Virus record (IMG/VR): IMGVR_UViG_2531839666_000027
Reading direction: 5' to 3' (one strand)
DNA length: 24,381 nt
Source of the DNA: a virus
Taxonomy: Duplodnaviria > Heunggongvirae > Uroviricota > Caudoviricetes
Of the stretch, positions 3,882-9,021 are shown piece after piece (position 1 is the stretch's first letter; every line of letters starts with the position of its first letter). The translations under genes and the position numbers were made by a program. The notes beneath the pieces were generated by a model. That model had not been told where the DNA came from and searched no databases. It saw nothing but the letters and a program-made list of their open reading frames with translations.

Positions 3882-6691
3882 TATGCAAGCCTCACAATAT
3901 AGTTAAATGCGATGTTTTTGACGGTGTTTTCCGCGTTACCAGCAGCGTTAACGGTGATGGTGTGTCCATGTGAACCAATCGCAACGGAGTGCGTATGAGC
4001 ACCAATACCGACAGTATGCGCGTGTGCACCTGCAGATGCTGCTGTGCCGGACAGTGAATGGCTATGATTACCATCTGTACTGGTATTCGCTAACCACCCC
4101 GTAAACATACCTACTGAGCCTTGTACACCCCAGGTATTTTGACCTGAGCTTGTATAACCATATTGATAAGTATCTTTAAAAACACTGGGGTTAAATCGAC
4201 GGCCATCTCTATGGCTGTGATTACCAGCTGCATTCGTGCTGCCACTTAAACTATGGGTATGCGCACCAGTGTTATTCGTGGATTTAGTGCCGTAATCAAA
4301 CGACGATGTGGTTTTCGTCCCCAAATCCGTACTGGATGCGCTGGCGCTGTGGGTATGCGATTTAATGCCGTCCTGTTCCTGAGACAATACGGCCCGACCA
4401 CTGGCAGGTTTGCCCTTAATCGTCCAGCCACGCATATCAGGGATCACGCCTGACGGATAAGCGGCTGCAAGTTTCGGGTATGCAGATTTGTCAAAAGTCT
4501 GCCCCTGCATCAGGGCATAGCCAGACGGAACGGTATCTGATGGCCACGGGATTGGTGCGCCAGGCGGATAAAACTGCTCTGATGGCGTATAGAGTGAATA
4601 AACTGTACCGTCCGTTAACCCTTCCGGCTTATTAGCAGAATATGCTGGTGACGTATGAATCGTCACGCTGGCATTACTGGTATAATCCCATTGAATATTT
4701 ACACCAGTCGCATAATTTCCGATTGCAACGTAAATATCGTAAGTATCACCAGATGTATTGACCCAGGCAAAATTTGTAAACCCTGTCGATGTGCGCTGCC
4801 ATAAAGCACCAGTAATCCCCTTCGGATTACCATTACCTGCACGTAAAACAAGTTCAGATATACCTGCCTGTTGAGGTGACCCCACGTTAAATCCAGCGCC
4901 ACCAATCAACGTAATTGAAACAACAGAACTCGCCTGTGGCATGGTTACCGTTGCTAATTTGAACCAACCAGCACCACCGCTGAATGACATTGTTGTTGAG
5001 TTAAGCGTACCAATATCTTTCGGCGTCAGTGTTATATCCGCTGAAAGCGCCTTACCATTCACCTTACGGGCAGAAGGTACCCGACCATTCGCATTGTCAT
5101 TAGCTGCTTTCACTGCTTTCGGTGTCGCAGCAAGCGTTTCAGATGTGCTGTTGGTTGCACTACTGAGCTGGACAATTCCTTTTTGTGCTGTCGTAGCGTC
5201 CTGTGCGGTGTATTTCCCGTTAGCCAGGTCATACGCGGCCTTAACGGCTTTTGGCGTTGCCGCCTGTGACTCGGAAGTGCTGTTAGTCGCACTGCTGAGC
5301 TGAACTATCCCTTTCTGTGCTGTCGTTGCATCCTGTGCGGTGTATTTCCCGTTAGCCAGGTCATACGCGGCCTTAACGGCTTTTGGCGTTGCCGCCTGTG
5401 ACTCGGAAGTGCTGTTGGTCGCACTGCTGAGCTGTACTATCCCCTTTTTCGTCGTGCTCGCATCCTCAAGCGCCACGGCGGATGCAATATCCTCTGCCCG
5501 TTTTGCTGCTGTCTCGGCGCGCGTTGCCGCGGATTCCGCCGTACTTTTGCTCTGTGCTGCCGCTGCCGCACTGCCAGCAGCCTCTGTCGCCTTCGTGGAT
5601 GCCGTCGTGGCGCTGCCCCTCGCTGCTGACGCCTGTCTGGTCGCCTCATCTTTTGAAGCAGACGCAGATGATGCCGATGACGCCGCCGAACTGGCGGACG
5701 ATGCGGCAGCCGTTTTTGAGGATTCTGCGCTGGTTTCCGACGCTTTCGCGTTCGTTTCGGATGTCTTCGCTGCGGAAGCAGACCTCGCTGCTGCGCTGGC
5801 CTGTTCAGTGGCTTCGCCAGCCTTCGTTGTGGCTGTTGAAGCGGATGATGCGGCGCTTTCTGCCGATTTTCCGGCGGCGGTGGCACTGACTGCTGCCTCC
5901 TCTGCCTTAATGGACGCCTCACGGGCCGATGATGCAGCTGCTGTCTCAGAGTCTGCCGCAGCTGAGGCGCTCTGTTCCGCTGCCGTTTCAGAAGACCTGG
6001 CATTCGTCTCGGACGTTTTTGCCGCCTTCACGGAATTTCCTGCCGCCGTTGCCGAGGAGGCTGCACTGCTGGCGCTTGTGGAGGCGTTCGTTTCTGATGA
6101 TTTTGCCGCCTCTTTGGAGGCCGCCGCATCTCTGGCTGAAGTGGCGGCTTCTGACGCTTTCGTCGTCGCAGTGGATGCAGAAGTGGCTGCTGATTTTTGT
6201 GACGCTGCAGCATTCGTTTCTGACGTTTTCGCCGCACCGGCACTGGTGGCCGCCGCGCTTTTTGAGGACTCTGCAGCGGCAGCACTTTTTGATGCTTCAG
6301 TGGCCTTTGTTGATGCCGTTCCTGCGCTGGAAGACGCCTCCTGAGCCGAAGTCGCGGCCTGTCCGGCTGACGTGCTGGCTGCACGCGCTGAGCCTGCAGC
6401 ATCAGTCGCATGGGTTGCCGCCTCACGGGCAGATGTGCCGGCATCACTGGCTGACTTCTTCGCGGCTGCCGTGTTCTGTGCCACCGCGGACGCGTTACGC
6501 GCCACCTCTTCCACCATCAGTTCAAAACGGCGCAGAGCCTCCGGACGGGCATCATCCTCCGTCATGGCACCGAGAAAATCATTCAGCGTACCGGGTCGGG
6601 AATCTTCATACACGGTGATGGTCCCGGCATGTGACGGCGGGAATCCTTCCACCAACAGAATAACGCTGTACTGACCGTACTCAACGTCCAT
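3881..6691 (-). CDS. stfQ: side tail fibre protein Stf, 5'-truncated by the IS (lacks about 50 N-terminal codons relative to lambda Stf); open frame continues to the IS boundary at 6699
   Basis: 936-aa ORF; Ala/Ser/Thr-rich rod, repeated [14 protein letters not shown] modules, C-terminal His-rich domain ...[38 protein letters not shown] as in lambda Stf. The frame upstream of the first ATG stays open (..[11 protein letters not shown]) until the IS end. Confidence 0.85.
5080..5460. repeat. about 2.8 copies of a near-perfect 132-bp tandem direct repeat inside stf (44-aa module [44 protein letters not shown])
   Basis: Directly visible: cctgtgcggtgtatttcccgttagccaggtcatacgcggccttaacggcttttggcgttgccgcctgtgactcggaagtgctgtt recurs at about 5201 and 5333 with 1-2 mismatches, plus a partial copy below 5200. 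Confidence 0.8.
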
Positions 6692-6707
6692 GCTGTAACT
6701 GTAGTGG

Positions 6708-7612
6708 TCAAGTAATATTGGCCACGGTTTTACAGTAAAAATGGTATCTGTTCTCTGACTCTTCCGGCGTCAGCCCACCGTTATAATGGTGAGGTCTGAC
6801 GCTGTTGTAGTAGTTCAATATGTAATCATTAATTTGCTGCCGGGCCTCGTCCTTGCCTGCGTAACCATTCGTTGGCACCCATTCTGTTTTCAGACTGCGG
6901 AAGAAGCGTTCCATGGGGCTGTTATCCCAGCAGTTTCCCCGCCGACTGACGCTTTGATTTATTCTGCAACGCCAGAGAAGTTGTTGATATTTAAGGCCTG
7001 TATACTGGCTTCCCTGGTCGCTATGGAACACGACATTTGGCCACGCGTCTCATAGGCCATCCGCACACTGCTTATCAGTGCGGTATCGGCATGCGCTGAC
7101 AGACTCCAGCCGATAACCCTGCGGGCAAAAAGATCCATAACAACCGCCAGATAGCACCAGCGATTTCCTGCCCAGAGATACGTAATATCTCCACACCATA
7201 CCCGGTCTGGCTCCGGTACTGCGAACTGACGCTCAAGCAGATTCGGCAGGCTGGTATGCTCCTGACGGGCATTTTTATACTGATGTTTTCCGGGCTGACA
7301 ACTGCTCAGGTTCAGATATTTCATCAGACGTCCGGCACGGTAACGGCTCATCGGGACGCCGTTTTGAGTCAGCATTTCAGCCAGAGTGCGCGCGCCCGCA
7401 GAGCCCCGACTTTGGTTCCACGCCCGGCGTATTTCGCTGCACAACCTGACTCGTGCCGGATTAACCGTATCGCGTCGTTTTCGCCAGTACCGGTAACTGC
7501 TGCGGTGTATTTCCAGAGCAGAACACAGGCTGACAACCGTGTGGCTGTCACTTAGTCTGGCGGCTATCGTGAACCGTTCAGCGAGTCGGACATTAAGAGC
7601 GCGGTAGCCTTT
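6708..7612 (-). pseudogene. IS3-family OrfB DDE transposase, disrupted: +1 (not -1) relative to orfA, plus an internal frameshift near 7035-7045
   Basis: DDE residues visible (WCGDITY..., [23 protein letters not shown]) but split across two frames (ORFs 6959..7444 and 6708..7031); the motif ETRGQ / [10 protein letters not shown] changes frame at GGCCAAATG. Confidence 0.7.
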
Positions 7613-7874
7613 TTAATATCGTATTTTGTTCCTCCAGACGGCGAACTTGCTTTTCCAGCTCGCGGATACGTTGCTGGTCTGGAGTAATGGGTGTGGCAGA
7701 GGGCGTAATACCCTGGCGCTCTCGCCTGAGCTGGCGTACCCAGCTCTCAAGCGTGGTTGAACCGACATTCATCGCTTCACTGGCCTGTCGATATGAGTAG
7801 CCCTTATCAACAATCAGCTGTGCACATTCCAGCCTGAACTCAGGGGTGAAGGTTCGTTTGGTTTTCTTGTTCAT
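7593..7874 (-). CDS. IS3-family OrfA (HTH transposase regulator); its C-terminus is altered by loss of one A in the frameshift heptamer
   Basis: [30 protein letters not shown]... with HTH and leucine-zipper-like region; ATG 7874..7872. An alternative frame at the 3' end encodes the canonical IS911-like tail [16 protein letters not shown]. Confidence 0.8.
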
Positions 7875-7941
7875 TAAGTCACCTGTTTTGTGTTGTGGTG
7901 AGAATATCACCTTTCATCAGGTGGCCAAATTTAGTGTGCCA

Positions 7942-9021
7942 CTACACACCGACCATCTGCATCGGGTTATAACTGGAAACACCAATACCACGTTCAGTCA
8001 GTGACATACGGGCATATTCACGCAGGGTCATCCCGTTGTAGACATTATCACGTTCAGTTTTTTCAAACCCGGCGCGCGCCATCAGCGCCTGGCGGATCCC
8101 GTCCCCCACAAAATTACCGTTACCGGCATAAATATGAGCCGGGGTATTTTTATTGGATGGCGTGGACTCGCGCCCCATCTCGTTCAACAGCTTTTCGCGG
8201 GCCTGCTCCAGCGAACATTCAGGATCGGCAAGACACTGAGCCTGCAACGACTGATAACGCCCGCCAAACATGGCAAACAGATCATTAATACCGTTTACAC
8301 GCGCTTTTTGCTCTGCCAGGACCTGCGCACGGATGCTGTTTTCATCCACCACGGGTGCTGCTGCCTGCACTGGCGTCCGGGAGGCTGCAGGTCCATCATC
8401 CTGTACGCGTGGAGCACTGTTGCGTGGCGGAGTAATCATATTTCGAATGGATTCCGGCATCTTTTTAAATTCCTCTGTACGTTTTGACTGAATACATGCC
8501 ATTGCCTTAACGGCTGGTGTCACCTGATCAGCAAATCCCTGTGCCAGACATTCGGCACCGGACATCCAGGTCTCATCCGCCAGCATGGCAGCAATTTCAT
8601 CGGTGGTTTTCCCGGTTTTCTGTGCATAAGCGGGTAACAGAACCGCCTCAACTCTATCGAGCAGGTCGGCATAGGTGCGCATGTCCTCCGCATCACCGCC
8701 CGTAAAGCCAAATGGTTTATGAATCATCATGAAGGTGTTTTCCGGCATAATGACCGGGTTTCCTACCATCGCAATGACCGACGCCATTGACGCCGCCACA
8801 CCGTCGACATAAACGGTAATGGACGCACCATGTGTTTTCAGCGCATTAAAAATGGCGATGCCTTCAAAGACATCGCCACCCGGTGAATTAATATGGAGAT
8901 TAATGTGGGTGATATCGCCCAGTGCATTCAGATCACTGATAAACTGCTTCGCTGTAACACCCCAGAAACCAATCTCGTCATAAATATAAATATCCGCGTC
9001 ACTCTGGTGACCAGCCTGCAT
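7942..9021 (-). CDS. prohead (head maturation) protease, ClpP/S49-like (lambda C-like position), fused to a downstream scaffold/capsid-like segment; 3'-truncated by the IS
   Basis: Starts at ATG 9021..9019 ([21 protein letters not shown]...), just after the portal stop; ClpP-like core HINSPGGDV...MASVIAMVG; the frame runs into the IS terminal repeat and stops at TAG 7944..7942. Confidence 0.75.

Follow-up and report, generated by a model that had tools for sequence, protein, structure and literature searches.

An IS3-family insertion sequence at the junction of a head-tail gene deletion in a Qin-type prophage of Escherichia coli

Background

When a single insertion sequence (IS) lies between the remnants of a prophage protease gene and a side tail fibre gene, two genes that are far apart in related phages, the question arises whether the element simply landed at that place or marks the site where the intervening head and tail genes were lost, and, if they were lost, by what route. 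We address this question for a stretch of 24,381 nucleotides from a virus of the Caudoviricetes (IMG/VR record IMGVR_UViG_2531839666_000027), hereafter called the window. A sequence-only reading of this DNA had proposed an IS911-like element at 6690-7950, exactly at a junction created by an IS-mediated adjacent deletion. The interval is correctly bracketed, as the IS maps to 6700-7946, where a single element joins, collinearly and with no target duplication, sequences that are not adjacent in intact relatives. A deletion junction rather than a simple insertion is therefore upheld, whereas for the mechanism an adjacent deletion and recombination between two IS copies both fit.

Two truncated genes on either side of the insertion sequence

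The features that define the junction, in window coordinates, are the following.

3881..6699, minus strand: side tail fibre gene stf without its first 142 nt (47 codons + 1 nt), from Pfam and alignment with the stf of D3
6696..6699: left flank TAAC, absent from the other side
6700..7946, minus strand: IS3-family insertion sequence of IS911-like architecture, with a length of 1,247 bp (intact copies: 1,258 bp)
7947..7950: right flank CACC, absent from the other side
7947..9090, minus strand: 5' part (381 codons + 1 nt) of a ClpP-like prohead protease/major capsid fusion gene, from Pfam and D3

On the left, the stf reading frame extends to 6699, with its first ATG at 6691 and an open reading frame (ORF) of 936 aa. 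Measured on the gene for the 986-aa Stf of D3, 142 nt precede the break, which lies at codon 47/48, and homology to D3 ends exactly at 6699 (...CTGTAAC/GCCCGG...), in agreement with the earlier observation of a match from about residue 48 that abuts the IS there. The junction between stf and the right inverted repeat (IRR) of the element reads CTGTAAC/TGTAGTGG in the window. Pfam phage_tail_N (PF08400) is matched from profile position 51 to 134 of 134, so that about 50 N-terminal residues are gone and the N-terminal tail-attachment domain of lambda-type Stf is incomplete. The ORF of the truncated gene (stf') opens at an internal Met, 9 nt away from the tip of the IS, without an obvious ribosome-binding site, and its RefSeq annotation as an intact 'tail fiber protein' appears doubtful. 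It also matches Pfam Phage_fiber_2 and Collar; tandem 177-bp direct repeats (92% identical) at 5139-5447 within stf correspond to the Phage_fiber_2 repeats.

On the right, homology to D3 begins exactly at 7947 (...ATGAACGCCG/CACCGACC...), and the junction between the left inverted repeat (IRL) and the capsid side reads CCACTACA/CACCGACC. The protease frame runs into the IS end through a hybrid codon GTG (7945-7947) and stops at TAG (7942-7944) within the IS tip, just where the stop had been noted. This gene had been taken for the lambda protease gene C. It is in fact a ClpP-like protease/major-capsid fusion gene, 675 aa when intact in D3, that was cut in the middle: the protease domain is kept (Pfam CLP_protease, residues 31-191), and the cut after codon 381 removed the C-terminal 294 codons with the capsid part. 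The lambda gene list (Nu3, D, E and so on) with which the missing block had been described does not fit a phage type that has a protease-capsid fusion.

The flanks TAAC/IS/CACC (AAC against CAC) show no target-site duplication, and the identical 3-4 bp repeats that would point to a simple insertion are absent. The lack of a duplication is meaningful since simple insertions of the same element elsewhere duplicate 3-4 bp, and a simple insertion in the window would therefore be recognisable.

IS copy in traG (plasmid): target duplication GAG, 3 bp
IS copy in an antiterminator gene: target duplication AAG, 3 bp
IS copy downstream of a capsid gene: target duplication CTTT, 4 bp

Extent and content of the deletion

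The gap between the two breakpoints is exactly 13,807 bp in the prophages of D3, EC1722-1 and 19KM1766N, somewhat less than the 15-20 kb proposed earlier from lambdoid gene order. All three are 99.9-100% identical to the window on both sides of the gap, and many further strains carry a prophage that is 99.9% identical from 7947 rightward, with the fusion gene and the full tail block intact. By the D3 annotation, 14 genes disappeared completely, together with the capsid half of the fusion gene and the opening 142 nt of stf; the 14 are DUF2190, a head-tail joining-type gene, tail genes of the Z/U/V/G/T/H/M/L/K/I/J type, among them the tape-measure gene, and lom. Terminase, portal, lysis genes and the stf'-tfaQ-pinQ end are retained, as the sequence-only reading had it for the packaging, lysis and tail-fibre modules. 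What remains of the prophage would be unable to build heads or tails, and no particle assembly is expected.

Both junctions with a single IS between them were found in 4 of 5,426 complete E. coli genomes, namely FHI_NMBU_11, JNEC-KY202, JNEC-KY174 and CFIAFB20190167, all of which have a 1,258-bp IS. The deletion allele probably arose once. The stf-IRR junction of the window was not found in IMG/VR, metagenomes of the Joint Genome Institute (JGI) or phage records. In FHI_NMBU_11 (NZ_CP045712.1, 71896-76380) the stretch of IS and junctions is ~1.2 kb longer and an IS30-like transposase is annotated there, which suggests that an IS30 element inserted into or beside the IS.

That nothing was deleted, the IS being either a simple insertion at a natural protease-stf boundary or an assembly artefact from a collapsed repeat IS, would suit the error-prone assembly of the window. 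Over 21 kb of comparison with JNEC-KY202, 17 of 17 indels are losses on the side of the window, and nearly all of them lie in homopolymer runs (at 856, 2317, 3207, 7036, 7065, 7609, 12736, 15137, 15578, 15591, 17443, 18414, 19597, 19870, 19873, 20450 and 20757), and the source assembly thus seems to under-call homopolymers. However, the junction is real and no assembly artefact, since it recurs identically in four independent complete genomes. None of the intact relatives is an IS-free prophage in which the genes end at these positions; both run on beyond the breakpoints there, and Pfam shows both window products to be truncated. Together with the lacking target duplication, this makes the absence of any deletion extremely improbable.

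An inversion is excluded, since the sequences on the two sides are arranged and oriented as in the intact prophage and nothing but the IS separates them. A displaced block bounded by the IS at these breakpoints would leave other IS-end junctions. The IRL joined to the missing 5' part of stf, and the IRR joined to the missing 3' part of the capsid gene, were each found in none of the 5,426 genomes, the four carriers included, which argues against inversion or relocation of such a block; this relocation check was a search for IS-end junctions, with no whole carrier genome aligned to the lost block.

Identity and condition of the element

The element has the length (1.2-1.55 kb) and the imperfect terminal inverted repeats ending in 5'-TG...CA-3' that characterise the IS3 family, its tips in the window being TGTAGTGG.../...CCACTACA. 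Its parts are listed below.

6700..6726: right inverted repeat IRR, the orfB-distal tip, TGTAGTGGTCAAGTAATATTGGCCACG, from end-to-end comparison with IRL
6708..7444, minus strand: orfB, DDE/rve transposase (Pfam rve, rve_3 and HTH_21 on two fragments)
7593..7874, minus strand: orfA, helix-turn-helix (HTH) transposase regulator (Pfam HTH_Tnp_1, E = 8.9e-13)
7608..7616, minus strand: programmed -1 frameshift site, reading A5G in the window where intact copies have A6G
7920..7946: left inverted repeat IRL, upstream of orfA, reverse complement TGTAGTGGCACACTAAATTTGGCCACC, with 28/36 positions as in the IRL of K-12 IS911A

The two repeats have in common 8 terminal bases and the TTGGCCAC core. The ATG of orfA is nt 73 of the IS, and in the intact copies of JNEC-KY202 and of strain a7 (see below) the A6G slippery site lies at nt 333, with orfA in frame 0 followed by an unbroken orfB in the -1 frame. 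RefSeq labels the product 'IS3 family transposase' with a programmed frameshift (WP_085968792.1), and the duplications of 3-4 bp at other copies are likewise as expected of the family.

The window copy is short of CCCGGGG after 7036 and of GGG after 7065, which breaks orfB into two ORFs, and the base lost from the slippery run changes the C-terminus of orfA. These three deletions are the only differences from the JNEC-KY202 copy at the same junction, there being 0 substitutions. In view of the assembly-wide pattern, the frameshifts in the window IS are probably assembly errors; inactivation of this copy by real decay was considered and rejected on the same ground, all 17 indels being window deletions that fall mostly in homopolymers. 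The frameshift near the 5' end of the terminase large subunit (12736) is suspect, as is that in orfB.

The description as IS911-like holds for the architecture. Like the IS911A fragment of K-12 MG1655, the element has TG...CA inverted repeats with a TTTGGCCACC core, orfA (HTH) followed by orfB (DDE) in the -1 frame and the slippery motif ATATTAAAAAAGG, and, like IS911, it duplicates 3-4 bp on simple insertion. However, nucleotide identity to the annotated IS911A 5' fragment is only 62% (203/326 aligned bases, over the first 335 bp), far from the near-identity expected of IS911 itself. By sequence comparison, therefore, the element is a different IS of the same group, and 'IS911-like' is a fair term for its architecture only.

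How the deletion may have arisen

The most likely route, to which we give even odds, is a transposase-mediated adjacent deletion from an IS resident in stf. The element, its two breakpoints, the size and content of the deletion and the missing duplication are shown directly, whereas the sequence of events and the step that depends on transposase are inferred. The IS would first have inserted into stf at codon 47/48; the transposase would then have linked its IRL with a target lying upstream on that molecule (an intramolecular adjacent deletion), whereby the DNA between the stf-resident IS and that target, plus one copy of the target duplication, would have been discarded. There is a well-followed precedent in the E. 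coli long-term evolution experiment, where 14 of 14 deletion-associated events of IS150, an IS3-family element, lacked duplications, all of these deletions began at a resident IS and they often grew over time (PMC11708052). The present case resembles them in having an IS3-family element at the deletion edge, no target duplication and, on this reading, one junction of resident-IS origin. The IS150 deletions ranged from 14 bp to 49 kb, with stepwise extension possible (PMC11708052), and the order of the IS150 events was followed in time, whereas here inter-IS recombination may also be considered.

A second prophage bears on this choice. In strain a7 (NZ_CP122496.1) a lambdoid prophage at the bio/att-lambda locus (bioA/ybhB) has the same stf-IRR junction, with no base of difference and with the IS in the same orientation. 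The IS there (9150-10407 in L008) has 1 difference in 1,258 bp, and its IRL abuts a J gene that breaks off after 1,728 nt, again with no target duplication (TAAC/TACT). The loss in a7 is limited to the 3' part of J, lom and the beginning of stf, ~2.6 kb by analogy with D3. Thus a7 differs from the window in prophage and locus, in the partner of the IRL (J and not the protease/capsid gene) and in a diverging stf. The a7 IRL-J junction was found in no other complete E. coli genome searched. Nested deletions share one end while the other varies, and such a history requires fewer unobserved intermediates than the two-copy model; the shared stf junction is suggestive and slightly favours nested adjacent deletions.

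Several points weigh against an adjacent deletion. The ancestral simple insertion in stf with its duplication, for which the junction CCACTACA-(T)AAC-GCCCGGCTTC was predicted, is absent from the 5,426 complete genomes, IMG/VR, the JGI metagenomes and the phage records. The junction shared by a7 and the window could also stem from two independent events rather than from common descent, as the prophages lie at different loci, their stf genes diverge and there is a single nucleotide polymorphism (SNP) 7 bp from the junction. Moreover, IS3-family elements normally move by copy-out-paste-in (PMC11708052), and adjacent deletion is a side pathway for them. Above all, the final structure is exactly that expected from recombination between two direct IS copies, so that the two routes are not separable from it.

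This last alternative, homologous recombination between two direct copies that sat in stf and in the protease-capsid gene, each with its own duplication, is tentative yet a serious possibility. A RecA-dependent crossover would excise 13.8 kb and one IS and leave a hybrid IS with half of each duplication, which predicts what is seen: a single IS, in the same orientation, with mismatched flanks TAAC/CACC. The literature names adjacent deletion and inter-IS recombination as the usual causes of missing duplications, the latter being a frequent one (PMC11708052). Suitable copies are abundant, with full-length matches in 1,651 of the 5,426 complete genomes and a median of 2, up to 17, places per genome. 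The IS recurs, usually in the same orientation, in lambdoid structural and other late genes (at the 3' end of J, in lom, at the start of stf, downstream of the capsid gene, and in FI and head-tail joining genes), a recurrence that could be a regional preference or the result of spread via module exchange. An insertion in stf has its halves ~96 kb apart on opposite strands in O112ab:H8 and STEC1590-type genomes, which is consistent with an inversion, possibly between two IS copies. Against this stands that neither required simple insertion was found: besides the one in stf, the capsid-gene insertion (capsid 3' part joined to IRR, predicted junction GAACGCCGCAC(C)-TGTAGTGG) was not found in the complete E. 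coli genomes or IMG/VR. For a7 a third unobserved insertion would be needed, in J at the a7 site. A hybrid IS would be undetectable, as the copies differ by 0-1 in 1,258 bp, and the two-copy model therefore cannot be tested from the sequence.

An adjacent deletion in the reverse direction, from an IS resident in the protease-capsid gene (and in J in a7) whose IRR attacked a preferred target at stf codon 47/48, appears unlikely. The shared stf junction would then be a recurrent target and not a sign of a shared ancestor, which would account for the identical stf position and orientation in two different prophages and for the failure to find an undeleted insertion at the stf site in the genomes searched. 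IS911 is reported to target sequences resembling its own ends. However, the stf target resembles the IS ends no more than chance would give: the longest exact match is a 7-mer, and matches of at least 7 bases also occurred in 725 of 2,000 shuffles. An inverted-repeat-like target near the stf site (GGCCACC, 26 bp into the deleted part) was accordingly rejected as chance-level. Nor was either of the resident insertions found that this direction requires, one within the capsid gene and the other in J where a7 has its junction.

As a separate observation on the stf flank, comparison of D3 with the window gives 9 SNPs in the last 254 bp (6445-6699) and only 1 in the preceding 2.7 kb. Since the window agrees with a7 at these 9 SNPs, import of ~250 bp of flank together with the IS from an a7-like donor was considered; it was rejected because the flanks in the intact Qin-type prophages of EC1722-1, 19KM1766N and GCUET01 are 100% identical to the window. 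The cluster is best read as local mosaicism in the N-terminal region of the D3 stf, D3 being the odd one.

Other copies of the element also touch on rearrangement. Around J-lom-stf in other genomes their orientation is usually that of the window. In NZ_CP062910.1, as in STEC1590, STEC1589 and EC9952, the IS is inserted ~35 nt into stf, and the halves of the insertion in NZ_CP062910.1 lie on opposite strands (~745434-745843 and 649310-649491). In FORC_069 (L010), O104:H4 and other genomes a copy sits between a truncated GTPase-family gene and a truncated ypjA/ehaD, without target duplication (GGG against GTG) in this FORC_069-type copy; it is a second, widespread IS-bounded rearrangement, so that the window copy is not the sole rearranged one.

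The Qin locus and its other deletion alleles

The prophage is of the lambdoid Qin type, as shown by its ydfJ site, its pinQ-tfaQ-stf end and its Qin lysis and cold-shock cargo; the locus was identified from the annotation of the identical JNEC-KY202 locus and the gene order of K-12 Qin. The genes run ydfJ', ynfT, ydfK, pinQ, tfaQ, stf', then the IS, followed by protease/capsid', portal, terminase and DUF1441 (Nu1-like), and on through gnsB, ynfN, cspI, rzpQ, rrrQ, ydfR, ess, cspB, cspF, ydfT and ydfU. Three neighbouring features were placed as follows.

2619-3209, plus strand: pinQ recombinase (annotation of JNEC-KY202, K-12 Qin)
3306-3881, minus strand: tfaQ tail-fibre assembly gene, beside stf' (annotation of JNEC-KY202, K-12 Qin)
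9035..13416, minus strand: packaging genes, namely portal, a small ORF, terminase large subunit and DUF1441 (Nu1-like) (JNEC-KY202 and D3 annotation)

The head-tail block was lost at this locus by at least three other deletions, none with an IS at the scar, in KV7, in the LR882493/APEC O78 group and in K-12. K-12 Qin has the same site (ydfJ'-ynfT-ydfK-pinQ-tfaQ-stf) and the same cargo from gnsB through ydfU as the window, and the head-tail block is gone from both. However, K-12 has lost more, the terminase large subunit, portal and protease too, and its scar joins nohA directly to the last 320 codons of stfQ (L013, 5299-5348). In KV7 the mapped endpoints differ from those of the window on both sides, stf being cut at window position 4900 and the capsid gene 511 bp further 3' (L003, 5900/5901). 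In the LR882493/APEC O78 group the truncated genes differ from those of the window in annotated length; the LR882493-type allele has ~255 bp of unannotated sequence between the annotated protease' and stf' fragments (L004, 5534-5789). The size of Qin is highly variable, 11-97 kb in 189 strains (PMC6379469).

Significance

The finding explains the defect of this Qin-type prophage, which has no capsid, tail or tail-tip genes, and adds one allele to the known and very variable series of Qin decay. The IS at the deletion junction is confirmed, and the event is ordinary prophage decay of a kind already known; its importance beyond annotation is little. The allele is rare, being carried by the four complete genomes named above, and is a potential lineage marker.

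A more far-reaching idea, which we regard as speculative and probably wrong, is that stf codon 47/48 is a recurrent, preferred endpoint at which unrelated lambdoid prophages (at the Qin site and at att-lambda) were convergently 'grounded' by IS-driven loss of tail genes. If true, the stf'-tfa-pin cassette would be what is kept downstream of the IS, and the element would be a semi-specific agent of prophage domestication and not the author of a random scar. The stf junction that a7 shares with the window is a small natural example of the fixed-end/variable-end pattern of IS3-family deletions known from experiments with IS150.

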